From positions 1 to 63,072 of the forward strand of contig DASQAV010000008.1 in the NCBI GenBank assembly GCA_035635575.1: DNA of 63,072 bases. The letters are read 5' to 3'. Of this stretch, positions 20,027 to 42,715 are shown one piece after another. Position numbers and translations under genes: made by a program. The DNA is from Candidatus Dormiibacterota bacterium. Its GTDB lineage: Bacteria; Eisenbacteria; RBG-16-71-46; SZUA-252. The notes below the pieces were generated by a model that was given only the letters and a program-made list of their open reading frames with translations, had not been told where the DNA came from and searched no databases. Position 1 is the stretch's first letter. Every line of letters begins with the position of its first letter.

Positions 20027-21376
20027 CTACTTTCGAGCAGTCGCGGAGGCGATTTCTTCCAGGATTCCCGCTGCCTGGGAAGCCAGGTTCCTGCGCTCCC
20101 ACGAGGCGAGCCGGTCCGGGGGAATCGGGACCGCCTGATCCTTCCCGGCTCGCCAGGCCTCAAGCTGATTTTCGAGAGCCGCGGCGACCGCGTCCGTGTC
20201 GCCCGGACGGAAGACGATTCCCGCCGCGGTGCTGCGGATGAGATCGGCGGCAGGCCCCTCGTCCAGGATCGCGATCACGGGACGTCCGCTGCTCAGGTAT
20301 TCGTAGATCTTCCCCGTGTAGAGGAGCGCGTCCGCGGCTCCCCCGTGCCCGAGGAGAAGGAGGGCCGAAGCGCGGCTCATCTCGGCGAGCGATTCGATGT
20401 GGGGTCGCGAGGGCTGGATCTCGAGCACGGGGCCCAGCCCGTAGCCTGCCTCCTCCTGCGTGCCGATCTCCTCGTTTCCGCCCAGAAACCGGAGCCTGAG
20501 ATCGCGGGCTGCTGCCGGATCCCGCTCCACCGCGCGCCGCGCGGCATCGAGGAGCGTGTGCACGGTGGGGCGGTGCGCCAGCTGCCCCGCATGGAGGAGC
20601 ACGAAGGCGCGTTCCGGCGAACGATCGGGCCCGCGCGCGCCCGAGCTGCGATCCTCCCCCCACAACGCGCGGCGCCAGTCGTCGGAATCGAATCCGTTGG
20701 GCAGGTACACGAACCGCGAGGGATCCACCTCGGGATAGCGCTTGCGATACATCGCCACCAGCGCCTCGCTCACGAGCGTCACGCGGTCGGCGGCGTGGAT
20801 GACGCGCCCCTCCATCGCCCGGTGCCGGGCCTCGTGCCAGGGGGTCGGAGACCGGTACGTGACGCGCCCCACCCATGGATCGCGAAAGTCCGCCACCCAG
20901 GGAACGTGATGCTTCTTCCGGAGCGCAAGCCCCGCGAGGTGCGCGCTCTCGGGGGAGGAGGTGGTCCACAGGGCGTCGATCCCGCCCTCCCGAAGGCGCG
21001 CGTCACCGGCGCGAAGTGCGGCCTGGGACCAGCCGCGGTACGCGTCGGGAAGGAACATCCAGCGCTGGAGCGAGCGCAGCGCCTTGAAGGCGCCCGCGCG
21101 CCGGGCTCCCTGCGCCTCCTGGACCGGGAATCCCGCCCGGGCGAGCGCGAGGAGAATCTTCCCCGCGGTCATCCCACCCACGCGCAGCACCTCCGCGCTG
21201 CGCGGAATCTCCTCGAGCAGCGTGGGGTCGAGGATCCAGTAGTCCTGATCGCGCGTCGTGACGACGGTGGATCGCCAGCCGCAGGGCTCGAGATAGCGCA
21301 CGAGCTTGAGCGTGCGCTGGCATCCGCCTCCTCCGAGCGGCGGGAAGAAGTAGGCGAGGACCAGGACCCGCTTCAG
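20027..21376 (-). CDS. GT4-like glycosyltransferase (start codon uncertain)
   Basis: KRVLVLAYFFPPLGGGGCQRTLKLVRYL N-terminal GT-B motif and a C-terminal nucleotide-sugar half. No ATG/GTG/TTG lies near the homologous N-terminus. CTG at 21376 overlaps the upstream stop (CTGA). The next canonical start (GTG 21301) would delete the Gly-rich motif. Confidence 0.75.
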   Translation of the reverse strand: MKRVLVLAYFFPPLGGGGCQRTLKLVRYLEPCGWRSTVVTTRDQDYWILDPTLLEEIPRSAEVLRVGGMTAGKILLALARAGFPVQEAQGARRAGAFKALRSLQRWMFLPDAYRGWSQAALRAGDARLREGGIDALWTTSSPESAHLAGLALRKKHHVPWVADFRDPWVGRVTYRSPTPWHEARHRAMEGRVIHAADRVTLVSEALVAMYRKRYPEVDPSRFVYLPNGFDSDDWRRALWGEDRSSGARGPDRSPERAFVLLHAGQLAHRPTVHTLLDAARRAVERDPAAARDLRLRFLGGNEEIGTQEEAGYGLGPVLEIQPSRPHIESLAEMSRASALLLLGHGGAADALLYTGKIYEYLSSGRPVIAILDEGPAADLIRSTAAGIVFRPGDTDAVAAALENQLEAWRAGKDQAVPIPPDRLASWERRNLASQAAGILEEIASATARK

Positions 21377-22449
21377 GCGCTCCTCCCCGACGCGAGTGCC
21401 TGGAGGCGCGCGTCGAGCTCCGCCAGCGTGTCCGCGAAGGAGCCGCGATCCAGGACGCGGGCGCGCGCCCGCGCGCGCATCGCGCCCGATTCCGGATCGG
21501 TGGCGCTCTCCTGGATCGCGCACGCGAGCGCCTCCGCGTCCCCCACCGGCACGAGGTAGCCCTCGCGGCGGTGGGTCACCCATTCTCGATTTCCGGCGAT
21601 GTCGGTCACGATGGGAAGGAGGCCCGACGACATGGCTTCGAGGAGCGATTGCGAGGTCGAGTCGGAGCGGGAGATGGAGACGTAGCGGTCGGCGCTCCGG
21701 TAGAGCTCGCGGAGCCGGTCCTCGCCCACGAATCCTTCCAGCGAGACGTCCCCCGCGATGCCCTCCTCGCGGATCCACGTCTCGACACTCGGGCGAAGCG
21801 GCCCGCTCCCCGCCATCGTGGCGCGGAACGGAAACGCGCGGCGTTTCAGAAGTCCGAGCGCGCGCACGAAGGTCTCGGGGTCGTACACGGCCTCGAGCTG
21901 CCGCGTCCAGAGGATCCGGAGCGGACCCTGGCCGGCGCGCGCCGCCGCCACGCCGTCGGGATGAAACGCGGCGGTGTCCACGCCCCAGGCGCGCGTCCAG
22001 ACGCTCCGGGGATCCGCCCCCAGCTCCACCGCCGCCTCCGAGAGATTCGCAGCGTCCACGTGGATCATGGGAGCTTTGCGCAGCACGAACCGCGCGCGCG
22101 CGCGATGAAACGGAGTGCGCCTCGCGTTCACGAGGAGATCCGAGCCCCAGCACGAAAGGAGCCACGGGCGCGCTCCCGCGAGCACGGCGAGGAGGCCGTA
22201 GTTGGGAAGGAAATGCGCGATGGTCACGTCGGGGCGGAATTCCAGGAGCCCGCGGCGGACGTCCTGCACCGCGCTCAGGTAGCGCAGCGCCTTCACGGGC
22301 CAGGGACGCCCCACCACGCGCGTCGGCACGCCCGCGTCCTTGGCCTCGTGCGCGGTGAGCAGCAGCACGTCGTGCCCACGCGAGCGATAGGCCGCGGCCC
22401 AGCGGCGCGTGTGGATCGACGGGCCGTGCGCGAGGAGGAGGATGCGCAC
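21373..22449 (-). CDS. GT4 glycosyltransferase
   Basis: GTG 22449 gives MRILLLAHGPSIHTRRW. EX7E-type region SQSLLEAMSSGLLPIVTDIAGNREWVTHRREGYLV. Confidence 0.8.
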   Translation of the reverse strand: MRILLLAHGPSIHTRRWAAAYRSRGHDVLLLTAHEAKDAGVPTRVVGRPWPVKALRYLSAVQDVRRGLLEFRPDVTIAHFLPNYGLLAVLAGARPWLLSCWGSDLLVNARRTPFHRARARFVLRKAPMIHVDAANLSEAAVELGADPRSVWTRAWGVDTAAFHPDGVAAARAGQGPLRILWTRQLEAVYDPETFVRALGLLKRRAFPFRATMAGSGPLRPSVETWIREEGIAGDVSLEGFVGEDRLRELYRSADRYVSISRSDSTSQSLLEAMSSGLLPIVTDIAGNREWVTHRREGYLVPVGDAEALACAIQESATDPESGAMRARARARVLDRGSFADTLAELDARLQALASGRSA

Positions 22450-22457
22450 GGAGCGCT

Positions 22458-23432
22458 TCAGCCCCGAAGCTTCCGGTGGACCGAGCTCCTTCGCCCCGCG
22501 ACGGCGAGAGGTCTCGGGACGGCGCCCCAGCTCTCCTTGAACCGGATCAGGCCCGCCGCGTCGTGCGGCGACGCGCCGAAGTTGTATTCCACGTAGCCGG
22601 CCCCGCAGAGCGTCTCGAGCGTGCGCGCGATGAGGAAGTTGTTCGGTCTCAGATGCCAGCTCGACTCGAGCGAGACGGGAAGCCAGTTCATCGCCACCCC
22701 CTCGTGGAAGAGATGCAGGCTCCCGGCGATCGGGCGGTCCCCGTGGTGCACGAGGTGGTATCGCGCGAGCCCCTTCGGCACCAGCTCCCGGTGGATTCTC
22801 CCGTAGAGCGAGTAGGGCTTGGGATTTCCCCCTCTCCGGCGCACGGTGCGCAACGCCAGATCGTAGAAGGCCCGCACGTCCTCCTCCCCCGAGGCCGCGC
22901 GGATCGTGAGGCCGCTCTCTTCGGCCTGCCGCACGAGGCGGCGGGCCGAAGGATGGAAGCCGCGCGCCAGCGCCTCGAAGTCCAGGGAGAGGGGAAGGAC
23001 GTGTGTGAAGCTCTCCGATGGCCGGAGTGCCTCGGGGATCTCGGGGACCGATCCCTGATACCAGGTCATCTCGGAGCGCAGCGTCCACCGGCTTCCGGCG
23101 CGCCGCGCGAACGCTTCCAGGAGCTCGGCGCGGGCGGACACGGGATCGGAGAGACCTTGCCGGAGAATGGGACCCCCATACGTCCCGTACGGCATCGAGA
23201 ACACCGTGCGCCCGATGCCGCGATTTCTCACGATCGCCGGGATCCCCGCCGCATAGCCCGCGTCGTCCTGGATCACGAACGCGACCCAGCGGGCGCCGCG
23301 CCACTCCTGGAGCCAGAGCTCCGCCCACGCGGAGGTGTGGAAGACGGTCGCTTCGAGGGCGCTCGCCACGAGCGCGTCCCACGCGGCGCGATCCGGCGGC
23401 GCGAGGACCTGGACCCGGGACTGGACCTTCAC
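22458..23432 (-). CDS. FemAB-like / GNAT (Acetyltransf_6-type) acyltransferase
   Basis: 324 aa. ...FHTSAWAELW...RYHLVHHGDRPIAGSLHLFHEGVAMNWLPVS...NNFLIARTLETLCGAGYVEYNFGAS...GLIRFKESWGA resembles the FemX/CelD-like family. GTG 23432 overlaps the upstream stop (GTGA). Confidence 0.7.
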   Translation of the reverse strand: MKVQSRVQVLAPPDRAAWDALVASALEATVFHTSAWAELWLQEWRGARWVAFVIQDDAGYAAGIPAIVRNRGIGRTVFSMPYGTYGGPILRQGLSDPVSARAELLEAFARRAGSRWTLRSEMTWYQGSVPEIPEALRPSESFTHVLPLSLDFEALARGFHPSARRLVRQAEESGLTIRAASGEEDVRAFYDLALRTVRRRGGNPKPYSLYGRIHRELVPKGLARYHLVHHGDRPIAGSLHLFHEGVAMNWLPVSLESSWHLRPNNFLIARTLETLCGAGYVEYNFGASPHDAAGLIRFKESWGAVPRPLAVAGRRSSVHRKLRG

Positions 23433-25606
23433 CGCACCACGGCCGCGCGAAGCGTCTTGGAGCGGGTCTTGTCGTGGAGGACGATCAGATAGACCCCGGA
23501 GGGAGCGGGCTCGCCGCTCGCCGCGCGCAGATCCCAGATCTCGTTCTGGGCGGGATCGCACCGGAACCGGTGCACGAGATTCCCCGCGAGGTCGAACACC
23601 TCGCCCGTGAGCGCGTTTTGGATTCCACCGATGCGGAGCGTTCCCTGGGCTCGCGAGGGATTGGGGAACACGAACGCCTGGTCGGTGATCCCCGGCGTTC
23701 CCGCTCCGCTCGGGACCACGCGCGAGATCCCGTGCGCGGTGCCCACCCACAAAGCACCGCGCGCCGCGTCCCAGGCGAGCGCCCGGATATCGTCGTCGAC
23801 CAGCCCCTGCTCCGTCGTGAACACCTCGATCCGTCCGCCGCCGGAAGCATCCGCGCGCGCGAGCCCGGAGGAGGTCCCGATCCAGAGATTCCCATTCGTG
23901 TCGAGGGCGAGATCGTTCACCTGGGCACTCGGGAGTCCGGGCCCGCCAGAGGAAGGAGCGACGGTCAGGAGGCGCCCGAACACTCCGCTCTGGATGCGGC
24001 CCGCGCCCAGCGCCGTCCCGACCCACGCCGTGAGCGGATCGATCACGGCGATCGAGGACACCTGGTTGTCCGGCTGGGCCGCGTAGTGCACCCAGAGGTC
24101 GTCCGCGTGCGTGAGCGTGCCGCGGCCGTCCCAGGTATCCAGGCCGTTCACGCTCCCGAACCATCCCTTCCCCGCGGAATCGAACCGCACCCCCCTCAGA
24201 TTGTTGCTGCGGATTCCGGAATTCGCCGGCGTGAGGGAGTCGAGGCGCGCTCCGCTCTGGGCATCGAAGACATAGACGCCGTTCTCGAGCTGCACGCCTC
24301 CGGCATAAATGAGCCCCGAGGGGGATTGTGCGAAGGCGAAGATATTGTTGGCGGGAGGCAGATCCCAGATGCCGGTCGCCGGATCGTACCGGTCGATCCG
24401 GGGCCGCGGCGTCCCGTCCGCGCAGCAGTGCCCGATCCAGATCCGCTCGCTCGAATCCGAGAAGATTCCGAAGGCGTCGGCCTCCTGGAAGGCGAATCCG
24501 GTCGTGCGGCCCGTGAGCGCGCTCCACGAAGCTCCATCGAAATGAAGCACCACACCGCGCGCGGTGCCCGCGGGGAAATCGTTCCCGGTGGTGAACCAGA
24601 CTCCTCGTGAGTCGGTGACCGCTCTCTGGGTTCCGTTCACCAGAGGTCCGTCGCTCAGATGGGGCTTCCAGACCGAGCTCCCGGAAGGAAGACGGGCCGC
24701 GCCGCCCGAGGTTCCGGCCCAGAGCGCCCCGTCCGGACCGTCCTGGAGCGCGCTCACGCCCAGGGTCGGAAGTCCGGCCCCCACGGACTGCCAGTCGCCC
24801 GCCGCATATCGATAGACTCCAACCCCGGCCGACCCCGAGAAGAATCCCAAGGTACTCTCCACCAGAACCTGGCTCGGAAACGTATGCCCGGAGTTCACGG
24901 GCTGGAACACGCCGCTCTCGTACCGGTACGGCCCGAGCGACGTCGCGGCCCACAAGGTATCCGCGTGCAGGACGAGCGAAGTCGTGGAGAGGGAAAGCGC
25001 CGGCGTGCGGTTCTGCCAGACACCACCCGCGAAGCTGGAGAGCCCGGTCGTCGTCGCCACCCAGAGCGTGTCCTGGACTTGGAGGAACGCACGCACGTCG
25101 TCGCCGGCGAGGGCGCCGGAGGTGGTCGCGTTCGTGAAGGCGCGCGTCAGGCCGATCTGGCCGGTGCCGGGATTCTCCGTGAAGAGGGCCGCGCCTCCGC
25201 TGGTGCCGACCCACACCGAGTCGCCTCGCGTGTAGAGGGCCTGCACGCGATCGGACGGAAGCCCGTCGAAGGAGCTGAGGGGGCGCCGGAAGGTTCCATC
25301 CGGACGGAGCCTCGCGATTCCCTCGTCCGCGGTTCCCGCCCAGAGCATCCCCGACGGGGAGACCTCCACCGAAAGCACGCGATTGGAGGGAAGCCCGCCC
25401 GGGGAGCGCAGGATCTTGGCGATGGCGCCGGAGGTAGGGTCGATGGTGACGACCCCTCCCAACGTTCCCATCGTAACGAGTCCTCTCCACGTCGTGACCG
25501 ACTGGATCTCATTCGAGTTCACGTAATTCTTCACGAAGAGGGTGGTCTGGGCGTCCGCCGCGCCCGTCCAGGCGAGCGGGAGCGCGAGGAAGCAGAGGAC
25601 TTTCAT
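23429..25606 (-). CDS. secreted multi-blade beta-propeller (Reg_prop-like repeats) with T9SS/FlgD-Ig-type C-terminal domain
   Basis: Signal peptide MKVLCFLALPLAWTGAADAQ. At least 11 repeats of the xWxGTxxGxxR type (LWAGTADEGIARL, VWVGTSGGAALF, LWIGTSSGLARA...). C-terminus is FVFPNPSRAQGTLRI...SGVYLIVLHDKTRSKTLRAAVVR. Confidence 0.8.
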   Translation of the reverse strand: MKVLCFLALPLAWTGAADAQTTLFVKNYVNSNEIQSVTTWRGLVTMGTLGGVVTIDPTSGAIAKILRSPGGLPSNRVLSVEVSPSGMLWAGTADEGIARLRPDGTFRRPLSSFDGLPSDRVQALYTRGDSVWVGTSGGAALFTENPGTGQIGLTRAFTNATTSGALAGDDVRAFLQVQDTLWVATTTGLSSFAGGVWQNRTPALSLSTTSLVLHADTLWAATSLGPYRYESGVFQPVNSGHTFPSQVLVESTLGFFSGSAGVGVYRYAAGDWQSVGAGLPTLGVSALQDGPDGALWAGTSGGAARLPSGSSVWKPHLSDGPLVNGTQRAVTDSRGVWFTTGNDFPAGTARGVVLHFDGASWSALTGRTTGFAFQEADAFGIFSDSSERIWIGHCCADGTPRPRIDRYDPATGIWDLPPANNIFAFAQSPSGLIYAGGVQLENGVYVFDAQSGARLDSLTPANSGIRSNNLRGVRFDSAGKGWFGSVNGLDTWDGRGTLTHADDLWVHYAAQPDNQVSSIAVIDPLTAWVGTALGAGRIQSGVFGRLLTVAPSSGGPGLPSAQVNDLALDTNGNLWIGTSSGLARADASGGGRIEVFTTEQGLVDDDIRALAWDAARGALWVGTAHGISRVVPSGAGTPGITDQAFVFPNPSRAQGTLRIGGIQNALTGEVFDLAGNLVHRFRCDPAQNEIWDLRAASGEPAPSGVYLIVLHDKTRSKTLRAAVVR

Positions 25607-25617
25607 CGACGCGCGGA

Positions 25618-27564: not shown

Positions 27565-27575
27565 GGAAGCTCCGC

Positions 27576-31950: not shown

Positions 31951-31971
31951 GACACCACATGCGCGGACTGA

Positions 31972-32000
31972 TTGACCTTTCGATGCACCTCCCGTAGCGT
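31972..32000 (+). promoter_or_regulatory. candidate promoter TTGACC-17 nt-TAGCGT, 8 nt upstream of GTG 32009 (leaderless-type geometry)
   Basis: -35 at 31972-31977 and -10 at 31995-32000. Pattern match only. Confidence 0.3.
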
Positions 32001-32008
32001 GCGCCCGC

Positions 32009-35191: not shown

Positions 35192-35216
35192 CGGTTCCGC
35201 ACTCCCTGGAGGAAGA

Positions 35217-36173: not shown

Positions 36174-37108
36174 CACGTCTTCCGCTGCCATTCCCATTGG
36201 AGGAAGAGCCCCCGTTCGATTGAGGTGCGCGGCAGAAACCCGAGATCGCGGCGCGCGAGCTTCGTGTCGGCCGACGTGTCGCGAGGGTCTCCGTGCTGCG
36301 GCTCGACGTGGCGCCGCTCGAGCTTCTTCCCCACGAGCCGCTCGATCTCGTCGAGCACTTCCCGGAGCTCCACCCGATGCCCGCCGCCGACATTGTATGC
36401 GAATTCCGGCACGGGAAGGGTCAGGCTCGACACCGTGGCCCGGATCGCGTCCTCCACGAAGGTGAAGTCGCGCGTCTGCCTCCCGTCCCCGTACACCGTC
36501 ACCGGCGTGCCCCGCCGTCCCGCCTCGAAGAAGCGGTGGAAGCCCATGTCGGGGCGCTGCCGCGGTCCGTAGACGGTGAAGTACCGGAGCGCCACCGCCG
36601 GGATTCCGTGCTCCCGCCGGTACGCATGGACCAGCGCTTCGGTCGCGAGCTTCGTCACGCCGTAGGGCGAGATGGGCCTCCTCGGCTCATCCTCCGGCGT
36701 GGGAGTGCGCGAGGCACTGCCGTAGACCGAGGAGCTGGACGCCACCGTGACCCGCTCCAGCGACCGGTCCCGGCACGCGTCCAGGAGCCGCTGCGTGGCG
36801 AGGACGTTGTGCTCCGCGTACTCGCGGAAGGAATCCCCCCAGCTCGACCGCACGCCCGGCAGCGCGGCCAGATGGGCCACGTGCGTCACGCCGTCGAGGA
36901 GCGGATTCAGGTCGGCGTGGCGCAGGTCCGATTCCAGGAAGCGGAACCCCGGATCCTGCCTCAGGCGTTCGAGATTCGCGCGCTTCACCGAGGCGTCGTA
37001 GTTGGGCGTGAACGCGTCCACCCCGGTGACCTCGAATCCCGCTCCCCGGAGCGCCTCCGCGAGCGTCGATCCCAGGAAGCCGGCGACGCCCGTGACGAGC
37101 GCGCGCAC
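36173..37108 (-). CDS. NAD-dependent nucleotide-sugar epimerase/dehydratase (extended SDR)
   Basis: MRALVTGVAGFLGSTL, catalytic YGVTK. Confidence 0.9.
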   Translation of the reverse strand: MRALVTGVAGFLGSTLAEALRGAGFEVTGVDAFTPNYDASVKRANLERLRQDPGFRFLESDLRHADLNPLLDGVTHVAHLAALPGVRSSWGDSFREYAEHNVLATQRLLDACRDRSLERVTVASSSSVYGSASRTPTPEDEPRRPISPYGVTKLATEALVHAYRREHGIPAVALRYFTVYGPRQRPDMGFHRFFEAGRRGTPVTVYGDGRQTRDFTFVEDAIRATVSSLTLPVPEFAYNVGGGHRVELREVLDEIERLVGKKLERRHVEPQHGDPRDTSADTKLARRDLGFLPRTSIERGLFLQWEWQRKT

Positions 37109-37114
37109 GGCCGC

Positions 37115-39745
37115 TCAGCGCGCTCCGCCGGCCGCGCGCGTCCCCTGGCCCGCCCGCGGCGCCTGGCCTGCCCGCGGCGTCTGGCCCGGCGGCGGCTCCG
37201 CCGAGATCCGGAGCGAGTCCTCGTACGCCTTGAGCCACGCTGCGCCCTGCGGGTCTTCGGGATGGGCCCGCGCCCAGGTACGCAGCACGTCCACGCCCTC
37301 CTGCTTGCGTCCCTCGAGCCAGAGCGCGCTGAAGAGCGCGCCGAACCAGTCGAAGTAGCGCTGGTCGATGGCGCAGGCGCGCCGGAGCTCGTCCAGCCCC
37401 TTCTCGATCAGGACCGGATTCCGGGTCTTGTGGCCGCGCTGCCAGTGGATGACGCCGAGGTGGTAATAGAACTCCGCGGAATTCGGGAAGCGCTGCTGCG
37501 CATCCGTGAAGACGCGCTCGGCATTCAGAGTGTCTCCCATGTCCTGATAGGACTTGCCGAGGTACTCGAGGAGCCCGGGGAAATCGGGCGTCATCTTGAC
37601 AGCGTCCCGCAGCACGTTGAGCGCGTCCTTGGTCTGCCCCTCCTGCTGGAGCTGGTAGGCGACCTGGACGTGGGCCGCGCTGTAGTTCTGCACCAGCTTG
37701 TAGGCGTTGTCGTCCTTGTACACGGTCCGGTCGTAGTCGCGGTTCTTGTTCAGGAGCCCGCCGTAGCGGAACACGTGGTAGAGGTTGTAGAGGGTCTTGT
37801 TCACGTCCACGACGTGGTCCCCCACCGGAGTCGGGCTGATCCGGAACACCAGGCCTTCCAGGACCTGGTTCTTGTCGAATCCCAGCTGCTCGGGAACGGT
37901 GACCGCCATGTAGATCGGCCGCTTCCACCCGTTGACCTTCACCATGTCCGCGACGGCCTGATCCTTCACCCAGACGATCTTTCCCGTCTTCTCGTCCTGG
38001 TATGGCTGGATGGCATCGAGCTGGGAGTCGGTGAAGGAGAACGGAACGCGCGGCTCCTGGTCGCGCAGCTGCTTGATGTACCAGGGCGTGTTGAGAAGGC
38101 TCAGGTTCACGACCCGCACGTCCTTCCGTACCTTCTCCACCTCCTGGATGTACCAGAGCGGGAACGTGTCGTTGTCCCCGTTCGTGATCACGATCGCGTT
38201 CGGCGCGAGCGGCGTGAGCATGTTGTACGCGTAGTCGTGCGCGATGTAGAAGCCCGACCGGTCGTGCTCGTACCACCCGTTCTTGAGCGGGAGGAGCGAG
38301 ATCCCGATCAGCGCCAGGGCCGCGATCCAGAGCCCCTTGCGCTCCCCTGCGAACGTGGCGGCCAGGCCGGATCGGGCCGGCTCGAGCGCCCGCGCGATCC
38401 AGTCCAGAATGCCCGCGGCGCCCATCCCCATCCAGATGGCCAGGAAGTGATAGGAGTTCGTGAAGAAATAATCGCGCTCGCGCACCTCGTGATCGGTGAA
38501 GTTGAGGTAGAAGATGAGCGCGGGGCCCATCACCACGTTCTGCGTCAGGAAGAACCAGAACGTCTTCTTGTCCCGCTTCCAGTTCCACCACGCGCCCAGA
38601 GCCAGAAGGAGGAACGGGATGGAATTGATCGCGAGGACCCAGAAGGAATCCGGGCCGAAGGGGCCGAATCCGCTCGTCAGCGTGTACTGCTGTCCGACGT
38701 AGCGGAAGTACATGTGGCTGATCTGGTACCAGACGTCCGCGCGGCGCTCGAAGGGGCTGGAGGGTCCGTACTGCTTGCGCAGGAGATAGTCCTTCCAGGT
38801 ATGGAAGGTCTCCGGCGCTCCCTCGTTCACGTTGGGATGCTGCTGGCTGCGCACGAGGAGGAAGAGCTGGACGGTGAATCCCACCAGGAGCGCGATCATC
38901 CACCAGGTGAAGAGGTTGTTCTTCACGAGCTTCTTGCGGTTCAGGGTGTAGATCCCGACCAGAATCGCGAACACCGTGAGGATGAGCGGGAGGGGCACGT
39001 CCACGTCGGCAGAGAACTCGTTCACCCACAGGAAGAGGACGAACCCTCCCAGGAGCGCCGCCGATGCCCAGAATTTCCCCGTCTTGAAATAGTTCGGGCG
39101 GGCGATCGCGAAGAGCACGAGAAGGCCGGGGGCTACGAGAATCGTTCCGAGATGCACGGCCGCGGAGATGGAGAGGAGATAGACGATCAGGACCAGGAGC
39201 CGGTCGTTCCCGGTCTCCCCCAGATGCTCCCACCAGTTGAACGACAGCCAGATGGTGAACGCGACCAGGAAGGAGGACAGGGAGTAGACCTCGGCCTCGA
39301 TGGCGCTGTCCCAGAAGGAGTTCGAGAATGCGACGAAGAACGCCGCGATCAATCCGCCGACCTCGCAGGCGAGCTGACGCGAGGGCTGCGATGCCTGGTC
39401 CCCGAACCACCGGCGGAGAGAGCGCACGGTGATGAGGAACGTGAAGAGCGCCGTGAGCGCCGAGGCCAGCGCGCTCATGAAATTCACCTTCCACGCCACG
39501 CCCCCGATCGGGATGAGGCTCATCATCCGCCCCAGCATCGTGTACACGGGATTCCCGGGCGGATGCGGCAGCCCCAGGATGTAGGACGTGGCGATGAACT
39601 CGCCGGAATCCCAGAACGGGACCGTCGGCGTCAGCGTCCGGAGGTAGGCCAGAAGCGGGACGAGGAAGGCGAACGCCGCGGCGATCAGGTGCCAGCGGTC
39701 CGCGTTCCTGCCCAGCGCGCTCACGTCTACCCGCTCCGCGCTCAT
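37115..39745 (-). CDS. DUF2723 (TMEM260-like) GT-C membrane glycosyltransferase with C-terminal TPR domain
   Basis: 876 aa. Hallmark VPFWDSGEFIATSYILGLPHPPGNPVY near the N-terminus, about 11 TM helices, a periplasmic middle domain, TPR-like C-terminus (...LGKSYQDMGDTLNAERVF...AEFYYHLGVIHWQRG...) and a Pro/Ala/Gly repeat tail. Confidence 0.8.
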   Translation of the reverse strand: MSAERVDVSALGRNADRWHLIAAAFAFLVPLLAYLRTLTPTVPFWDSGEFIATSYILGLPHPPGNPVYTMLGRMMSLIPIGGVAWKVNFMSALASALTALFTFLITVRSLRRWFGDQASQPSRQLACEVGGLIAAFFVAFSNSFWDSAIEAEVYSLSSFLVAFTIWLSFNWWEHLGETGNDRLLVLIVYLLSISAAVHLGTILVAPGLLVLFAIARPNYFKTGKFWASAALLGGFVLFLWVNEFSADVDVPLPLILTVFAILVGIYTLNRKKLVKNNLFTWWMIALLVGFTVQLFLLVRSQQHPNVNEGAPETFHTWKDYLLRKQYGPSSPFERRADVWYQISHMYFRYVGQQYTLTSGFGPFGPDSFWVLAINSIPFLLLALGAWWNWKRDKKTFWFFLTQNVVMGPALIFYLNFTDHEVRERDYFFTNSYHFLAIWMGMGAAGILDWIARALEPARSGLAATFAGERKGLWIAALALIGISLLPLKNGWYEHDRSGFYIAHDYAYNMLTPLAPNAIVITNGDNDTFPLWYIQEVEKVRKDVRVVNLSLLNTPWYIKQLRDQEPRVPFSFTDSQLDAIQPYQDEKTGKIVWVKDQAVADMVKVNGWKRPIYMAVTVPEQLGFDKNQVLEGLVFRISPTPVGDHVVDVNKTLYNLYHVFRYGGLLNKNRDYDRTVYKDDNAYKLVQNYSAAHVQVAYQLQQEGQTKDALNVLRDAVKMTPDFPGLLEYLGKSYQDMGDTLNAERVFTDAQQRFPNSAEFYYHLGVIHWQRGHKTRNPVLIEKGLDELRRACAIDQRYFDWFGALFSALWLEGRKQEGVDVLRTWARAHPEDPQGAAWLKAYEDSLRISAEPPPGQTPRAGQAPRAGQGTRAAGGAR

Positions 39746-40794
39746 CCCCGGCCTTCCCCCGGCGAGGCCTCTCGCTCGCCGATGCGCTTCTGCTTCCGCT
39801 GCTCGATGCGCTTCCCGATCGCGCGCCGCGGCGTGCGGGAGATGAAGATGAGCCCGCCCAGGAGGCTGATCAGGACCGAGATGATGTAGGTGAGGAACGG
39901 AATGCTGAAGGCCTGCTCCCGCGTCATACCCGCCATCCGGAAGAGCACCACCGCCGCCCCTTCACGCACGCCGATCCCGTTCAGGGAAATGGGAAGCGAG
40001 ATGAGCGCCGCCAGGATCGGGACGAAGAGGAAGTAGTACGAGAGCGAGACGCGCACGCCCAGCGCCAGCCCGACGAGATAGTGGACGTAGATGCGGCTGA
40101 TCTGCACGAGGGTGGACGCGACGTAGGCCGCCGCGAGCGCGCCTCCCTGATTCCGGAATCCGTGGAGGTCGTCCATGAGCCGCGCGATCGCGCGCTCCAC
40201 CTTCCGGGCCCCGATCATGCGAAAGGGGCGCTCGAAGGCCTGGAGCACGCCGCGATGGAAGATGCTCACGAAGAGCGCCAGCGCCATGAGGAACACCACG
40301 AGCGTGGCCACGTACAGGGCGTGGAGGTGCACCCGGTCCAGGGCCGTGATCGAGGCGATGACGGCCAGGAATCCGATGGCCACCACGCCGATCAGCCGGT
40401 CCATGAGCGTCGCCGAGAAGACGGAGCTCACGCGGTCCGCGTGCTTGGAGGCGTCGCTGATGCGGGCGATGTCCCCTCCGATGTTCGAAGGCAGGAAATT
40501 GTTGAAGAAGAGCCCGACGAAGTAATACGACGCCGCCTTGGGATAGGGAATCGCCACCCCCTGCGCGCGGAGCAGCCGCGCCCAGAGCCAGCTCCCGATG
40601 AGGCTCGACACGAGAAAGAGCGCCGCGGCCAGGGCGAGGAGACCCGGATCGGCCGCGCGCATCGTACTCCATACGTTGCGCGGCGAGACCTTCGCGATGA
40701 CGTACGCGAAGAGGAGCACGCTGAGGAGGATCTTGAGCGCGATGAGGGGCACTTTGAGCTTCCGGAGCGTGCCCGAGCCCGTCTCGCCCTTCAT
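39742..40794 (-). CDS. UPF0104 / lysyl-PG-synthase-TM-like flippase-like membrane protein
   Basis: ATG 40794 overlaps the upstream stop (ATGA). Motif FFNNFLPSNIGGDIARI, about 8 TM helices. Confidence 0.8.
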   Translation of the reverse strand: MKGETGSGTLRKLKVPLIALKILLSVLLFAYVIAKVSPRNVWSTMRAADPGLLALAAALFLVSSLIGSWLWARLLRAQGVAIPYPKAASYYFVGLFFNNFLPSNIGGDIARISDASKHADRVSSVFSATLMDRLIGVVAIGFLAVIASITALDRVHLHALYVATLVVFLMALALFVSIFHRGVLQAFERPFRMIGARKVERAIARLMDDLHGFRNQGGALAAAYVASTLVQISRIYVHYLVGLALGVRVSLSYYFLFVPILAALISLPISLNGIGVREGAAVVLFRMAGMTREQAFSIPFLTYIISVLISLLGGLIFISRTPRRAIGKRIEQRKQKRIGEREASPGEGRG

Positions 40795-41912
40795 GCCGCT
40801 CCCGCCGCTCTCGCCGCGCGCTCGATCACGATCCGGCTCTCCGCGTAGCAGCGCTCCCACGTGAAGCCGCGCGCCCACCGGATCGCCGCCTCCGCCATGC
40901 GAAGCCTCCGGGGACGGTCGGTGAGGAGCGACACGATGGCGCCCGCGAGTGCCTGCGCGTCGCCGTGCGGCACCAGGATGCCGGTTTCCTGGTCCCGGAC
41001 GGATTCGACGAGACCCGGGCTCCGGCTCGCCACGACGGGCGTGCCGCAGGCGTTCGCCTCGATGACGGTGAGGCCCCAGCCCTCCTTGGGAGAGGGCGCC
41101 GTGGCGACCAGCGCCTGGTTCAGGGCCGCCACCTTGTCCCGGTGGCTCAGGGCACCCAGGAACTCGACCCGGCTCTCGATCCCCAGCGAGCGCGCCAGCG
41201 ATTTCAAGACGTCGCGGTAGGGACCGTCGCCCACGATCCGGAGCCTCGCCTCCGGGACGCGGATCAACACGAGGGGAAAGGCGCGGATCAGATGCTGCGC
41301 GCCCTTGTACTTCCGGAGGCGTCCCACGAAGACCACGATGGGCGAATGTCGAGCCTCGGGCGGGACCGTGACGGCGTAGGCGTCGTGATCCAGGCCGCAG
41401 CGCACGACATCGATCCGCTCGCGCGAAATTCCGCGCTGCACGAGATCGTCTCGCGTGCTCTCGGAGATGGCGAGGAACGGAACGCCGCGGTACACGAGGG
41501 GAATCAAGCTCTCGTGGGCCCGTACCAGGGCGCCCAGGACGGGCGAGGCCTCCTGGAACACGGTGGAGCCGAAGAGATGCGGCACCACGGCGAGCACAGG
41601 GGCGCGGACGTACCAGGGCGTGAAGAAGGGAACCTTGTTGATGTCTTCCAGGACAAGATCAAATCGCTCTCCCCGAAGCTTTCGTCGATACAGCTGGGCG
41701 AGGGCAAGATGCGCATTGTACCACGATCCCGCGCGCAGGACGCGCATGCCCTGAACCGTTTCCTCGGCCTTCGATCCCGGGAACGCTTCCGCGAGCCAGG
41801 TCACCTGGTCGCCGTCCCGCACGGCGCGGGTCAGGATCTCCGAGAGATGGAGCTCGGCGCCCCCGGCCTCCGGGTGCCGGGGGTCCCTCCAATTGAAGGC
41901 GAGGAGATTCAC
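40791..41912 (-). CDS. GT4 glycosyltransferase
   Basis: GTG 41912 overlaps the upstream stop (GTGA). PSPKEGWGLTVIEANACGTPVVASRSPGLVESVRDQETGILV. Confidence 0.85.
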   Translation of the reverse strand: MNLLAFNWRDPRHPEAGGAELHLSEILTRAVRDGDQVTWLAEAFPGSKAEETVQGMRVLRAGSWYNAHLALAQLYRRKLRGERFDLVLEDINKVPFFTPWYVRAPVLAVVPHLFGSTVFQEASPVLGALVRAHESLIPLVYRGVPFLAISESTRDDLVQRGISRERIDVVRCGLDHDAYAVTVPPEARHSPIVVFVGRLRKYKGAQHLIRAFPLVLIRVPEARLRIVGDGPYRDVLKSLARSLGIESRVEFLGALSHRDKVAALNQALVATAPSPKEGWGLTVIEANACGTPVVASRSPGLVESVRDQETGILVPHGDAQALAGAIVSLLTDRPRRLRMAEAAIRWARGFTWERCYAESRIVIERAARAAGAA

Positions 41913-42715
41913 CCGATAGATACACCGGAGGGCGAGGAATCCGCCCGCTCTTTTCGGCCGAGCGCGCCGATCACGAAGTAGGTGTAGAAGGCGATCCGGC
42001 TCTTGCGGAGCCGGGCGCGGGCCGTGGCCATGAGGCGGGAGAGCAAGGGAAGGGGCGGCGGGAAGAGGGGCAGCCGCGCGACACGCGATCGAAGGAGCAC
42101 CACCCGGAGCGAGCGGTAGAGGAGCCCGGGGACCATCCAGTTTCCGTACCGCCGCGTCACGGTCACCCCGGCCCTCCGCATGAGCCCCTCCAGCTCGCCG
42201 ATCGTGAACTCGGTCTCCCACCCCGCGAACCACTTCCCCATCGCGATGAGGAGATGCTTGAGCACCGTGTAGAGATGGAAGCGCTGCGGCACGTCCACGA
42301 GCAGGACTCCCTCCGGCTCCAGCGCGCGGACGTTCTCGCGCAGGAGCGGGAGCGGATCGCGGAAATGCTCGAGGAGGCCTTGATGGAACACCACGTGGAA
42401 GGCGCCGTCCCGGAAGGGCATCCGGAGCGCGTCCGCGCGAACCAGGTGAACGCGCTGTCCCGCGCGCTCGGCGACGGCGCGGGATACGTGCAACGAGGCC
42501 AGGGAATAGTCCAGCACCACCGCGACCGCCCCGGCCTGCGCCAGCGTGACGCTGTCGCGTCCGGAGCCCGCCCCCACCTCGAGCACGCGCTTCCCCGCGA
42601 CCGGGGTCGCGGCCAGGATCTCCTCCACCACGCGTCCCTCGGTGGGATAGACGTCCTCGATCTCCGCGCGCTCGCGCCAGAAGCGCGACCAGTGGGCTTC
42701 GGTGGATTGACGCAC
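41909..42715 (-). CDS. class I SAM-dependent methyltransferase
   Basis: VLEVGAGSGRDS motif I and FHVVFHQGLLEHF. GTG start. Confidence 0.85.
   Translation of the reverse strand: MRQSTEAHWSRFWRERAEIEDVYPTEGRVVEEILAATPVAGKRVLEVGAGSGRDSVTLAQAGAVAVVLDYSLASLHVSRAVAERAGQRVHLVRADALRMPFRDGAFHVVFHQGLLEHFRDPLPLLRENVRALEPEGVLLVDVPQRFHLYTVLKHLLIAMGKWFAGWETEFTIGELEGLMRRAGVTVTRRYGNWMVPGLLYRSLRVVLLRSRVARLPLFPPPLPLLSRLMATARARLRKSRIAFYTYFVIGALGRKERADSSPSGVSIG

Follow-up and report, generated by a model that had tools for sequence, protein, structure and literature searches.

The window analysed here, a 63-kb stretch of DNA (63,072 nucleotides), harbours at positions 20027-42715 a cluster of 17 genes spanning ~23 kb. 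In our reading it is an envelope glycosylation locus of housekeeping type that Candidatus Eisenbacteria, an uncultured phylum, inherits vertically; it would have been assembled from older FCB modules and would work as proposed below, and the probability of this reading is estimated at roughly 0.45. A literature search turned up no description of the locus, in agreement with the initial annotation, which had regarded it as a plausible undescribed system.

Gene content and flanks of the locus

Since raw lists of open reading frames are uninformative at 69% GC, the genes were called with a codon-usage model and the cluster was annotated via Pfam and NCBIfam profile searches. The sugar-handling cluster was recovered in place, although with 17 genes instead of the 18 counted initially:

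g17, 41909-42715, minus strand: class I SAM methyltransferase, 268 aa (Pfam Methyltransf_11, E 2e-17)
g16, 40791-41912, minus: GT4, 373 aa, cytoplasmic (Pfam Glycos_transf_1, E 4e-45)
g15, 39742-40794, minus: LPG_synthase_TM 'flippase-like' membrane protein, 350 aa (PF03706, E 8.5e-40)
g14, 37115-39745, minus: GT-C of the TMEM260/DUF2723 family with C-terminal TPR, 876 aa (PF11028, 168 bits; TPR matches)
g13, 36173-37108, minus: NAD-dependent sugar-nucleotide epimerase/dehydratase (SDR), 311 aa (Pfam Epimerase, E 2e-53)
g12, 35217-36197, minus: ArnC/GtrB/PgfS-type polyprenyl-phosphate sugar synthase, GT2, 326 aa (ArnC, E 8e-50)
g11, 34034-35191, minus: GT4, 385 aa, cytoplasmic (Pfam Glyco_trans_1_4, E 4e-24)
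g10, 33078-34037, minus: GT2 of WbbL/GlfT1 type, 319 aa (Pfam Glycos_transf_2, E 8e-15)
g9, 32009-33154, plus: GT4, 381 aa (Pfam Glyco_trans_1_4, E 2e-24 in the plus frame)
g8, 30745-31893, minus: TuaH-like GT-B, 382 aa (NCBIfam TuaH, 82 bits, E 3e-23, below cutoff; Pfam Glyco_trans_1_4)
g7, 28286-30748, minus: YfhO-family GT-C, 820 aa (Pfam YfhO, 37 bits; AlphaFold/Foldseek fold)
g6, 27576-28289, minus: soluble DPMS/DPM1-like synthase, 237 aa, catalytic domain only (5mlz, E 4.9e-38)
g5, 25618-27564, minus: fusion of GT2, TM bundle/CoA_binding_3 and PGT remnant (Pfam GT2, CoA_binding_3)
g4, 23429-25621, minus: secreted PorZ-like protein, 730 aa (AlphaFold/Foldseek match to PorZ 5m11)
g3, 22458-23432, minus: Acetyltransf_6/FemAB-like acyl-/aminoacyl-transferase, 324 aa (PF13480, E 3e-19; FemAB, E 3e-6)
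g2, 21373-22449, minus: GT4, 358 aa (Pfam Glyco_trans_1_4, E 2e-23)
g1, 20027-21301, minus: GT4, 424 aa (Pfam Glyco_transf_4, E 1.5e-12)

The profile searches reproduced exactly the twelve glycosyltransferases (GTs) predicted beforehand, namely five GT4 (g1, g2, g9, g11, g16), one TuaH-like GT-B (g8), four GT2 (the N-terminus of g5, g6, g10, g12) and two GT-C enzymes (g7, g14). The epimerase (g13), SAM methyltransferase (g17), FemAB-like (g3), flippase-like (g15) and secreted CTD-bearing propeller (g4) genes were matched as well. Upstream the cluster is flanked by ribD/E/BA/H-nusB and downstream by mraZ-STAS-rsmH-ftsL-like-ftsI-mur...-ftsZ, as described initially, except that a metallophosphoesterase gene (42719-43444) sits between nusB and the cluster. 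Most gene junctions are 4-nt overlaps. Co-orientation with dcw applies to 16 of the 17 genes, since g9 lies on the plus strand. Neither a match to the Wzx, Wzy, Wzz, Wza or ABC families nor an intact phosphoglycosyltransferase (PGT) was obtained for the cluster ORFs or for the 20 ORFs scanned on its flanks within the 63-kb window; the absence claimed initially thus withstood the HMM annotation that had been named as its possible refuter. For the other ORFs of the window, among them mur ligases, ftsA, rib genes and nusB, identification relied solely on position and synteny.

For several of the cytoplasmic GTs and tailoring enzymes the best NCBIfam matches were below cutoff, comprising MshA and BshA for g16, RmlB and GalE for g13, rhamnosyltransferase and GlfT1 for g10, EpsE for g2 (100 bits) and pepcterm_femAB for g3 (69 bits), for which no PDB sequence match was found; g11 weakly matched MshA and GlcNAc-PG synthase. 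The methyltransferase g17 has a hydrophobic C-terminus, overlaps g16 by 4 nt and forms a tight pair with it across phyla (together in 20/21 loci); g13 and g12 occur together in 9/13. At their 3' ends g9 and g10 share 77 nt, and the g9 orthologues in L001 and L002 (see below) likewise lie on the opposite strand. A second co-directional run (g8 to g1) opens with g8, which overlaps g7 by 4 nt, and ends with g1, the last gene before mraZ. Its orthologues in L004 and L005 measure 447-449 aa versus 424 aa, so that the start of g1 may lie further upstream.

GT-C enzymes, sugar donors and the g5/g4 pair

Both GT-C assignments, whose failure would have counted against the initial annotation, were borne out. 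The sequence of g14 matched the solved human TMEM260 (9rql, E 2.5e-20) with its 'FWDSGE' aligned to 'GGDSGE' and the loop-1 Asp kept; D46 and E49 are invariant (22 homologues) and identity within Eisenbacteria is 58-86%. Human TMEM260 uses Dol-P-Man as donor and targets protein domains via its TPR region (PMC10214176). The TPR domain of g14 is on its own no proof of a protein acceptor. For g7, built of ~12 TM helices, a periplasmic beta domain of 245 aa and one last TM helix, the Pfam YfhO score was 37 bits (cutoff 28.5), with the best-scoring stretch confined to the last 50 aa. Its AlphaFold model (pLDDT 81, pTM 0.82) matched AftD, STT3, ArnT, EmbA/B, AglB, PglB and DPY19 in Foldseek with probabilities of 0.99-1.0; every confident match was a GT-C enzyme, mycobacterial AftD being the top one. 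The loop-1 residue D68 is invariant, and the homologues carry the NCBI name 'YfhO family protein'.

Residues 1-228 of g6 align to chain residues 23-246 of P. furiosus DPMS (5mlz), no TM segment was predicted and identity is 55-62% even across phyla; judged by this likeness, g6 is probably a polyprenyl-phosphate hexose synthase whose sugar is probably mannose. Full-length PDB matches of g12 were ArnC (E 8e-50) and GtrB (sll0501, E 5e-35), its NCBIfam scores were 178 bits for ArnC and 136 bits for PgfS, and it ends in two C-terminal TM helices (252-270 and 287-305). The AglJ model of NCBIfam scored 62 bits for g6 and 78 bits for g12 versus a cutoff of 325. The two synthase/GT-C sets of the initial annotation were therefore recovered as enzymes, while their pairing by adjacency (g6-g7, g12-g14) is probably reversed. 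Translational coupling of g6 and g7 in the window is compatible with that pairing, but the constant neighbour of g6 is g5, which it directly adjoins in 10/14 loci. YfhO was found with an ArnC/GtrB-like gene in 6/6 loci, and TMEM260-like loci of other phyla have a DPMS-like gene and lack g12 and g7. Because co-occurrence and family precedent favour it, g6 is probably paired with g14 and g12 plus g13 with g7. A candidate flippase for the lipid-linked sugar is g15 (NCBIfam TIGR00374, 84 bits versus cutoff 43; ~7 TM segments), whose start is most likely the ATG at 40794 within the ATGA overlap with the g16 stop (350 aa).

The protein g5 joins a GT2 domain (1-260) to a TM bundle with a CoA_binding_3 DUF (~265-480) and a PGT remnant (~520-648), and only positions 2-270 of the 445 of the NCBIfam EPS_sugtrans model were matched. 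No Bac_transf match was obtained for g5 even at E<=1; 8/12 members of its family were matched. Furthermore, where WbaP has its Asp-Glu dyad ('SLDELPQ'), the g5 family shows 'AA' or an alignment gap. Among orthologues the remnant shows 61-79% identity, the same as the rest of the protein, which suggests purifying selection. By sequence the PGT-like domain appears to be conserved and catalytically dead, devoid of the dyad and of half of Bac_transf, and the initial statement that the only such domain is truncated is confirmed.

The adjacent g4 carries a signal peptide, two beta-propellers (Reg_prop) and a T9SS-type C-terminal beta-sandwich, and it overlaps g5 and g3 by 4 nt each, indicating translational coupling; in P0366, a protein of the divergent relative L086 (see below), the two are joined as a fusion of g4 with a g5-like protein. 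The top Foldseek match of its AlphaFold model (pLDDT 89, pTM 0.87) was PorZ (5m11) over the full length (E 1.3e-27, TM 0.64/0.63), HTCS sensors reaching TM 0.33-0.36 only. NCBIfam gave 87 bits for PorZ (cutoff 260), restricted to the C-terminal 160 aa, and 21.4 bits for Por_Secre_tail (cutoff 23). PorZ is a glycolipid-delivery protein of type IX secretion, listed in NCBIfam as 'anionic LPS delivery protein'. According to the model, g4 is a predicted structural homologue of PorZ. The secreted CTD-bearing propeller of the initial annotation is thereby retained, its identity amended and a link to type IX secretion added via Foldseek.

Conservation and modularity

The gene order from nusB to mraZ is kept in two other Eisenbacteria genomes (L001/L004 and L002/L005) at 50-92% protein identity, the same level as for the housekeeping flanks nusB and mraZ, so that the synteny survey suggested initially returned the same arrangement. 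The 17-gene order is identical in all three genomes, down to 50% identity, and is far from chance. Retention of the whole order at this identity indicates a vertically inherited, housekeeping-type locus and not a variable island.

Relatives of g14 were found in at least 15 FCB-type lineages, and across many FCB-group phyla the TMEM260-like GT-C travels with g17-, g16-, g15-, g6- and g5-like genes. The order seen in other phyla is TMEM260-like, GT2, flippase-like, ..., DPMS-like, GT2/half-PGT, accA. TMEM260-like genes are adjoined by g16 in 27/80 genome loci and by g15 in 17/80; a g10-like GT2 follows them in other phyla (17/80 loci), as exemplified by the GT2 at 5998-7032 in L037. In the distant lineages L015, L016 and L042 the two GT-Cs and the two donor synthases are again found together. 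In more distant Eisenbacteria (L003, L010, L013, L086) the gene content differs, and the TMEM260-like core is widespread without a g4 neighbour. By gene co-occurrence the locus is modular, and it appears to be a composite of older modules and not a single invention.

It is very improbable that unrelated GT genes simply gathered between rib-nusB and dcw: sub-modules do occur apart in other phyla and content varies in the four divergent loci, but the strict order in three genomes, the mostly 4-nt junctions and the joint recurrence of both GT-Cs and both synthases argue against it.

Proposed mechanism and alternative readings

According to the reading we prefer, two polyprenyl-phosphate sugar donors would be made on the inner side of the cytoplasmic membrane, probably polyprenyl-P-mannose by the soluble g6 and a second donor by the membrane-anchored g12, with the nucleotide sugar supplied by g13. 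After flipping, for which g15 is the candidate, the donors would be used on the periplasmic side by the TPR-bearing g14, most likely drawing on g6 and acting on protein acceptors, and by g7, most likely drawing on g12/g13, for which CsbB-YfhO and S. mutans Pgf provide precedent. Eight cytoplasmic GT domains (g1, g2, g8, g9, g10, g11, g16 and the GT2 of g5) would build a lipid-linked oligosaccharide tailored by the methyltransferase g17 and by g3. Our preferred guess is that polyprenyl monophosphate serves as the primer, with no canonical PGT in the locus: Pren-P-Man from g6 may be held by the dead-PGT scaffold of g5, whose GT2 would add the second sugar. Haloarchaeal AglJ, AglG, AglI and AglE are a precedent for such monophosphate-linked assembly; to our knowledge, there is no established route to polyprenyl-monophosphate-linked oligosaccharides in Bacteria, and the low AglJ scores of g6 and g12 also count against this scheme. 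Finally, g4, co-translated with g5 and g3, may act at the cell surface by binding the completed glycan or glycolipid.

A serious, though on balance unlikely, competitor is an ordinary Und-PP-linked pathway (heteropolysaccharide, O-antigen-like or protein glycan) with PGT, Wzx and polymerase/ligase encoded elsewhere in the genome, the synthase/GT-C modules only decorating the exported product as in the Gtr and Arn systems. The eight GT domains on the cytoplasmic side depend on a lipid primer and a flippase, g5 descends from a Lg-PGT, and several GTs best match EPS/O-antigen enzymes (EpsE, WcaL, TuaH, rhamnosyltransferase), all below threshold. Moreover, in L086, a divergent Eisenbacteria MAG, the homologous block g8-g7-g6-g5/g4 is adjoined by a Wzx-type flippase (Polysacc_synt PF01943, 32 bits versus cutoff 28) as well as by PglF-like dehydratase and DegT aminotransferase genes, which, for that lineage at least, points to the Und-PP/Wzx route; the flippase also means that a classical pathway with genes elsewhere may exist. 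The initial claim of a difference from EPS or O-antigen assembly is consequently not proven. Against this pathway, no PGT, Wzx or polymerase/ligase gene was found in the scanned window ORFs or within the nusB-to-murE span of L001/L004 and L002/L005, the sole PGT-derived domain is apparently kept dead throughout the g5 family, and the locus keeps a strict order and has evolved in step with its housekeeping flanks, unlike typical hypervariable polysaccharide loci.

That the locus makes a surface glycolipid tethering type IX cargo, analogous to P. gingivalis A-LPS, we consider distinctly unlikely; this idea overlaps the others and is not mutually exclusive with them. By analogy, a PorU-type sortase would receive the glycolipid from g4, which would act like PorZ, and g3 would act like VimA and install an aminoacyl group whose amine would serve to attach the cargo, VimA being an N-acyltransferase-like enzyme which attaches Ser or Gly to the linking sugar (PMC7468200). 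It draws on the PorZ match of g4 and the NCBIfam name of that family, on the coupling of g4 to g5 and g3 together with the P0366 fusion, and on two CTD-bearing proteins in the window (g4 and 47706-50360). However, the PorZ profile score is far under its cutoff, the TMEM260-like core is common without g4, neither Wbp-pathway genes nor a VimE-like deacetylase occur in the locus, and the A-LPS pathway of P. gingivalis is of WbaP/Wzx/Wzy/WaaL type, a gene set different from that of the locus (PMC13086638).

There is little to recommend a lipomannan- or lipoteichoic-like lipoglycan modelled on mycobacterial PIM -> LM/LAM, in which the PimA/MshA-like GT4s g11 and g16 would glycosylate a membrane glycerolipid in the cytoplasm, g15 would flip it and the GT-Cs would extend it with polyprenyl-P-sugars. 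Such a route needs no PGT, g11 and g16 best match MshA and more weakly GlcNAc-phosphatidylglycerol synthase, g15 is of the same family as the lipid-flippase domain of MprF and AftD heads the fold matches of g7. All GT4 matches are, however, far under the family cutoffs and generic for GT4, inositol and phosphatidylinositol genes are absent from the locus, and protein acceptors are suggested by the TPR of g14 together with its relationship to a protein O-mannosyltransferase.

On the preferred reading, then, the locus appears, without the usual genes for starting, polymerising and exporting nearby, to build a glycan that is attached or decorated outside the cytoplasmic membrane.

Gene content and flanks of the glycosylation locus

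At the G+C content of the window (69%), raw ORF lists and GC3 filters mixed real genes with antisense shadows and were discarded; gene calling relied on a model of codon usage, for which the clearest genes served as training set. As outlined in the table below, this model yielded 17 genes within 20027-42715, and not the eighteen of the initial annotation. The twelve glycosyltransferases (GTs) claimed there were recovered exactly by Pfam and NCBIfam, comprising five GT4, one TuaH-like GT-B, four GT2 and two membrane enzymes of the GT-C class.

Table. Genes of the cluster, numbered from the mraZ side to the nusB side and assigned by Pfam and NCBIfam unless stated otherwise.
g1 (20027-21301, minus strand): GT4
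g2 (minus): GT4
g3 (minus): Acetyltransf_6/FemAB-like protein, acyl/aminoacyl-transferase-like (Pfam)
g4 (minus): secreted Reg_prop propeller protein
g5 (minus): GT2 at the N-terminus
g6 (minus): GT2
g7 (minus): GT-C, YfhO
g8 (minus): TuaH-like GT-B
g9 (32009-33154, plus): GT4
g10 (minus): GT2
g11 (minus): GT4
g12 (minus): GT2
g13 (minus): SDR epimerase/dehydratase
g14 (minus): GT-C, TMEM260-like/DUF2723 with TPR repeats
g15 (minus): LPG_synthase_TM 'flippase-like' protein (Pfam; NCBIfam TIGR00374 above cutoff)
g16 (minus): GT4
g17 (41909-42715, minus): SAM methyltransferase

The co-orientation with the division/cell-wall (dcw) operon holds for 16 of the 17 genes, the sole exception being g9. 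Both proposed flanks were confirmed, with ribD, ribE, ribBA, ribH, nusB and a metallophosphoesterase gene upstream, and mraZ, a STAS-domain gene, rsmH, an ftsL-like gene, ftsI and mur genes, on to ftsZ, downstream. Most gene junctions in the cluster overlap by 4 nt, which splits it into one co-directional run from g17 to g10 and another from g8 to g1; between them g9 lies convergent with g10. A promoter and terminator scan gave no signal exceeding shuffled expectation, and consequently operon boundaries are defined by gene spacing only. The assignment of g3 is at the Pfam level, its PDB sequence search having returned no match. For g9, g11 and g16 a defence-system reading of the PF20706 'GT4-conflict' matches was dropped, as the generic GT4 matches were stronger.

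Some further features were recorded in the window. The 3' ends of g9 (+) and g10 (-) overlap by 77 nt (33078-33154; 16565-16641 in L001), with equal length in L001 and L002, which belong to two other Eisenbacteria genomes. The lowest G+C of the cluster (0.64-0.65 versus 0.67-0.715 elsewhere) was found at 37000-40000, the region of g14, which is among the most conserved proteins. The STAS-domain ORF (153 aa, 18916-19377, minus strand) lies between mraZ and rsmH, and the same insertion occurs in L004 and L005 of these two genomes. At 52473-55343 (minus strand) an unusually long SurA_N-domain protein of 956 aa is encoded, for which Pfam marks three PPIase (Rotamase_2) stretches.

In agreement with the initial annotation, no match to the Wzx, Wzy/WaaL, Wzz/Wzc, Wza or ABC-transporter families was obtained when the ORFs of the cluster and 20 flanking ones were scanned, and no initiating phosphoglycosyl transferase (PGT) was found in the same set; the remaining ORFs of the window were assigned from position and synteny only. 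No cluster ORF matched the small GtrA/GtcA-family flippases, which leaves g15 as the sole flippase-like gene. No unassigned gap exceeds 212 nt, which leaves no room for a hidden small GtrA-type gene.

Donor synthases, GT-C enzymes, g5 and g4

Both lipid-phosphate-sugar synthases that had been proposed were identified. g6 (237 aa, no TM segment) matched the catalytic domain of the dolichol-phosphate mannose synthase (DPMS) of Pyrococcus furiosus (5mlz) over its whole length (residues 1-228, E 4.9e-38), and the membrane protein constantly found next to it is g5. g12, of 326 aa with a pair of C-terminal TM helices, gave full-length PDB matches to ArnC (E 8e-50) and GtrB (E 5e-35); among NCBIfam models it scored best with ArnC (178 bits), followed by PgfS of S. 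mutans (136 bits).

The two GT-C assignments stand as well. g14 matched PF11028 with 168 bits (cutoff 24.2, E 2e-49) and the solved human TMEM260 (9rql) with E 2.5e-20. In the latter alignment 'FWDSGE' of g14 corresponds to 'GGDSGE' in the first extracytoplasmic loop of the human enzyme, which contains Asp52, the proposed catalytic residue (PMC10214176). D46 and E49 of g14 are invariant across 22 homologues, and its C-terminus (residues 690-771) matched TPR_14, TPR_11, TPR_16 and TPR_19. For g7, PF09586 (YfhO) scored 37.1 bits (cutoff 28.5), the best-scoring stretch covering just the last 50 residues (734-784), and NCBI names its homologues 'YfhO family protein'. A PDB sequence search with g7 returned no match, and the assignment was settled by structure prediction. 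All confident Foldseek matches of the AlphaFold model (pLDDT 81, pTM 0.82) in the PDB were GT-C enzymes (AftD, STT3, ArnT, EmbA/B, AglB, PglB and DPY19; probability 0.99-1.0). About 12 TM helices are followed by a beta-rich outer domain of 245 residues and a final TM helix, and Asp68 in loop 1 is invariant (alignment of 31 sequences). This predicted topology, together with Asp68, fits YfhO.

g5 (648 aa) joins a GT2 domain to the TM bundle (TM segments at 267-386) and the PF13727 DUF (CoA_binding_3, E 6.5e-8) of a large monotopic PGT (Lg-PGT, WbaP type). Its PGT domain had been described as truncated, and indeed Bac_transf (PF02397) did not match g5 even at E<=1, while NCBIfam EPS_sugtrans covered model positions 2-270 of 445 only and a PDB sequence search with g5 returned no match. 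Like the Lg-PGTs (PMC10942596), g5 retains the TM bundle and the DUF, and the C-terminal motifs KRxxD, 'SLVG', 'RPG' and 'DLxYxxxxS' are recognisable; unlike them, it lacks the Asp-Glu dyad, the KFRTM region and the Bac_transf match, and carries the additional N-terminal GT2 domain. The dyad resides in 'SLDELPQ' of WbaP (PMC10942596), which aligned to a gap in g5 and to 'HLAALPA' in P0419, the most canonical of the sampled members of this family. As an exhaustive search unveiled, fusions of the g5 kind form a family of 650-740 aa. Bac_transf matched 8 of the 12 sampled members; in L037, the sole member whose range was inspected, the match comprises the C-terminal half (profile 94-176 of 179). 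According to the alignment both the dyad and the KFRTM region are missing from every sampled member, and the whole family appears catalytically dead in its PGT part. Across Eisenbacteria orthologues the PGT remnant is 61-79% identical, matching the rest of the protein; it is a pseudoenzyme domain that has been maintained, not debris.

The description of g4 as a secreted propeller protein bearing a C-terminal domain (CTD) was correct, and its identity as a PorZ-like protein can be added. By sequence, g4 scored 87 bits against NCBIfam PorZ (NF052228, cutoff 260) over the C-terminal 160 residues (566-726) only, and its match to the NCBIfam T9SS type-A CTD was borderline. The top PDB structural match of its AlphaFold model (pLDDT 89, pTM 0.87) was PorZ (5m11) over the full length (E 1.3e-27, TM 0.64/0.63). 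Both proteins carry a signal peptide, a pair of propellers and a CTD that are placed alike in space; identity is 18%, and the score lies under the family cutoff. Propellers of Bacteroides HTCS sensors were best by sequence, but reached TM 0.33-0.36 only, because their domains are arranged differently. An HTCS-type periplasmic sensor was dropped as an assignment: g4 has no TM or kinase part, the CTD is present, and PorZ is by far the better global match.

Unlike PorZ, g4 is encoded within a glycan-synthesis operon, where it shares 4-nt overlaps with both g5 and g3, and in one lineage it is fused to a glycosyltransferase. Among 150 representatives no Rosetta-stone fusion of g6 and g5 was found; a g5-g4 fusion turned up instead. 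In a divergent Eisenbacteria MAG (52% G+C; locus L086, 10001-14164) a g5-like and a g4-like part form one ORF of 1387 residues (P0366), with the former signal peptide, the signal-peptide-like segment 'RRRIVPLSIIPLLFLFSQKSEA', at the junction. P0366 could be a true signal-anchor fusion or the result of a lost stop codon. A g4-like gene also follows g5 in two further loci (L012 and L015).

PorZ, a type IX secretion component, is called 'anionic LPS delivery protein' by NCBIfam. In P. gingivalis its ligand, A-LPS, is built by the WbaP/Wzx/Wzy/WaaL route plus Wbp/Vim genes (PMC7468200, PMC13086638), the linking sugar being modified with Ser or Gly by VimA (PMC7468200). This gene set (Wbp/Vim and WbaP/Wzx/Wzy/WaaL) is not present at the locus, and consequently the parallel to PorZ is one of role, not of pathway. 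Elsewhere in the window (47706-50360, minus strand) an 884-aa protein is encoded whose only recognisable part is a C-terminal FlgD_ig/T9SS type-A sorting domain; a gene of this kind precedes ribD in L001 and L002. It is possibly a T9SS cargo or a glycosylation substrate.

Conservation, modularity and donor pairing

Nearly all homologues of g14, g7 and g4 in the range of 50-90% identity are labelled Candidatus Eisenbacteria, a group of which we know of no cultured member. The synteny survey in related genomes proposed with the initial annotation was carried out, and the whole order of ribD-nusB, 17 genes and mraZ-rsmH-ftsI was found to be kept in two other Eisenbacteria, on two long contigs (L001/L004 and L002/L005; g14 identity 78% and 60%). 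There the cluster proteins are 50-92% identical, a range equal to that of nusB and mraZ. Judged by these alignments, the locus is vertically inherited under purifying selection, quite the reverse of a variable island for surface polysaccharides. In L001/L004 g6 seemed to be lost, and the idea that it is dispensable was considered and dismissed: in this long-read assembly the gene is present at 84-88% identity and split by two frameshifts. The orthologue (L001 21391-22103; L004 7334-8046) runs through three reading frames, most likely owing to assembly indels and not as a pseudogene, and g11 is similarly split in appearance in L002/L005.

When species-representative genomes were scanned with the alignment of g14, relatives at 28-42% identity appeared in many lineages, namely Eisenbacteria, Latescibacterota, Zixibacteria, KSB1, Krumholzibacteriia, Cloacimonadota, Marinimicrobia, Gemmatimonadota, Fibrobacterota, Calditrichia, Ignavibacteria, Chlorobiaceae (including the cultured Prosthecochloris ethylica) and Bacteroidota (Chitinophagaceae, Rhodothermales, Balneolaceae). 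In order to survey the neighbours of these TMEM260-like genes, the cluster proteins were searched by tblastn against 85 loci (80 genome loci plus L001-L005).

Table. Neighbours of TMEM260-like genes, counted over the 80 genome loci.
g17 with g16: 20 of 21 loci
g15: 17 loci
g10-like GT2: 17 loci
nusB: 15 loci
g6 directly followed by g5: 10 of 14 loci
g12 with g13: 9 of 13 loci
g7 with g12: 6 of 6 loci
g7 with g6: 4 of 6 loci

Across phyla g6 is 55-62% identical. The order TMEM260-like, GT2, LPG_synthase_TM, ..., DPMS-like, GT2/half-PGT, accA is shared by, among others, a Fibrobacterota MAG and an uncultured lineage of low GC. In the 15 of 80 loci with nusB, this gene lies directly upstream of the TMEM260-like module; they comprise Eisenbacteria, Zixibacteria, Krumholzibacteriia, Fibrobacterota and Chitinispirillaceae, and the linkage to this housekeeping gene must hence be old.

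With respect to the two sets of synthase and GT-C that had been postulated, all four enzymes are present, whereas their pairing by adjacency is likely reversed. YfhO and PgfM pair with CsbB/PgfS-type synthases. TMEM260, on the other hand, uses Dol-P-Man (PMC10214176), and in eight TMEM260-like loci a DPMS-like gene occurs without g12 or g7. Since co-occurrence counts and family knowledge agree, g6 is likelier to supply g14, and g12/g13 to supply g7.

Proposed pathway, alternatives and biological meaning

Each part of the cluster belongs to a known family or kind. Systems combining GtrB/CsbB/PgfS-type synthases with a GT-C include CsbB-GtcA-YfhO of B. subtilis and Listeria (teichoic acids), Pgf of S. 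mutans (adhesins; PgfS, the epimerase PgfE and PgfM1/M2) and ArnC-ArnT. Like CsbB-YfhO and Pgf, the locus holds a full-length ArnC/GtrB/PgfS-type synthase with two TM helices (g12) and a YfhO-family GT-C (g7), which always co-occurs with g12, and the epimerase g13 resembles PgfE. Unlike in those systems, the host is a diderm FCB-group bacterium without teichoic acid, an LPG_synthase_TM protein stands in place of a GtrA/GtcA-family flippase, and g12/g7 are embedded among ten further GTs.

In the Agl N-glycosylation of Haloferax volcanii the DPM1-like AglJ primes dolichol monophosphate, soluble GTs extend the glycan, and flipping and GT-C transfer follow, the final mannose being added from Dol-P-Man by a second GT-C, AglS. 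Similarly, the locus lacks a PGT and encodes two DPM1/AglJ-like GT2s, many soluble GTs and two GT-Cs, although these are of the TMEM260 and YfhO types and not STT3/AglB. The likeness is one of logic only, as the NCBIfam AglJ scores (top match of g6 with 62 bits, among the top matches of g12 with 78 bits) are far under the cutoff of 325. We know of no bacterial precedent for such logic.

The actinobacterial Ppm1/Pmt pair follows a logic comparable to that of DPM1/TMEM260, which carries out eukaryotic protein O-mannosylation (PMC10214176). g14 shares with human TMEM260 the N-terminal GT-C module, the loop-1 Asp and the C-terminal TPR region, and g6, like human DPM1, consists of the DPMS catalytic domain and has no membrane anchor. 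Furthermore, g6-like and g14-like genes travel together in several phyla. In contrast, identity between g14 and human TMEM260 is low and local, and the cytoplasmic GTs, the methyltransferase and the GT2/dead-PGT fusion have no eukaryotic counterpart. To our knowledge no bacterial DUF2723 protein has a tested activity.

The locus encodes two synthases of polyprenyl-phosphate sugars and two GT-Cs whose acidic loop-1 residues are intact, together with a flippase-like protein and eight GT domains in the cytoplasm. To these are added a methyltransferase and an acyl/aminoacyl-transferase-like protein, as well as the dead PGT scaffold and a secreted PorZ-like protein. In the reading we favour, g6 would form Pren-P-Man and g12 a second Pren-P-sugar from the product of g13, both donors being flipped by g15. 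g14 and g7 would transfer the sugars outside the cytoplasm, with g14 selecting protein acceptors through its TPR domain. A lipid-linked oligosaccharide would be assembled by the cytoplasmic GTs; in our preferred version its primer would be Pren-P-Man and the first extension would be made by g5, where the dead PGT domain would serve to hold the polyprenyl phosphate. The product would be bound at the surface by g4. Priming in this manner mirrors the haloarchaeal Agl logic and would account for two observations, that g6 and g5 are constantly adjacent and that the dead domain has been retained. We assign a probability of roughly 45% to this package as a whole. The post-export glycosylation initially suggested is supported in outline and altered in detail, namely by the reversed pairing, the PorZ-like g4, the modularity of the locus and the Wzx-type flippase of L086.

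The last point bears on an unlikely, though serious, alternative, a classical Und-PP/Wzx pathway whose genes missing from the scanned ORFs lie elsewhere in the genome. In L086 a homologous block (TuaH-like, YfhO, DPMS-like, g5/g4), preceded by genes for a DegT aminotransferase and a nucleotidyltransferase, is followed at 14269-21013 by a PglF-like dehydratase gene and by one for a flippase of the Wzx type (Polysacc_synt, PF01943, 32 bits, cutoff 28). One GT4 and one GT2 are also encoded there, as is a protein of 503 aa that has 9 TM segments and no Pfam match; its N-terminal 'ITDDTFIHLQYAKNL' looks GT-C-like. Judging from gene order, at least one lineage joins a homologous block to a Wzx-type route, so that missing Wzx-type genes near the window cluster cannot mean a pathway without them. 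The L086 neighbour genes, including Wzx (by tblastn), have no match in the window. It is quite improbable that the locus product is the anchor of type IX cargo, a reading to which the PorZ-like g4 is relevant and which overlaps with the favoured package or the Und-PP/Wzx route. A glycerolipid-based lipoglycan appears highly improbable, and a mere juxtaposition of unrelated genes is hardly credible for components which are co-inherited and largely translationally coupled.

Beyond the Eisenbacteria, the recurring core (DPMS-like, GT2/dead-PGT, g10-like GT2, flippase-like, TMEM260-like TPR GT-C, and the methyltransferase+GT4 pair) might represent a PGT-free bacterial protein O-glycosylation across the FCB group. 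It would be primed with Pren-P-Man, extended by a GT2 whose repurposed dead PGT domain holds the lipid, flipped, and transferred by the TMEM260 counterpart, and in Eisenbacteria it would also be wired to a PorZ-like surface protein. We regard this proposal as speculative and rather doubtful. If true, DUF2723 proteins would be candidates for the O-glycosyltransferase of general O-glycosylation in the FCB group, and the PorZ-like wiring would link the pathway to type IX secretion cargo attachment. The general O-glycans of B. fragilis have a mannose linkage (PMC8698959), and in the literature found on Bacteroidota general O-glycosylation no O-glycosyltransferase or O-oligosaccharyltransferase was named.

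Literature searches on bacterial or Bacteroidota DUF2723 or TMEM260, on Eisenbacteria glycosyltransferases and on Eisenbacteria T9SS gave no relevant paper. Likewise, we found no description of the conserved 17-gene combination as a whole, of the FCB-wide TMEM260-like core beside nusB or other housekeeping genes, of a GT2/dead-PGT family paired with a soluble DPMS, or of a PorZ-like gene within a glycan operon, and no published work on ligand synthesis for the type IX attachment complex outside Bacteroidota.

Human TMEM260 is a disease-linked protein O-mannosyltransferase, and its bacterial TMEM260/DUF2723 relatives are widespread across the FCB group, including Bacteroidota and Chlorobiaceae. 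The locus sets them in a defined gene set of donor synthase, candidate flippase, tailoring enzymes and second GT-C, by which the "function unknown" of DUF2723 is narrowed to a few assays. The GT2/dead-PGT fusion family offers a clean pseudoenzyme case and, together with the soluble DPMS-like protein always found beside it, may show how soluble synthases dock to the membrane or how glycans are primed without a PGT. A PorZ-like gene in, and once fused to, a glycan operon hints at how the ligand of a type IX attachment complex is made, and may indicate the way in which cargo becomes anchored in groups other than Bacteroidota. Finally, the locus lies between nusB and the division/cell-wall operon and evolves as these do, which suggests a core component of the Eisenbacteria envelope as the product.
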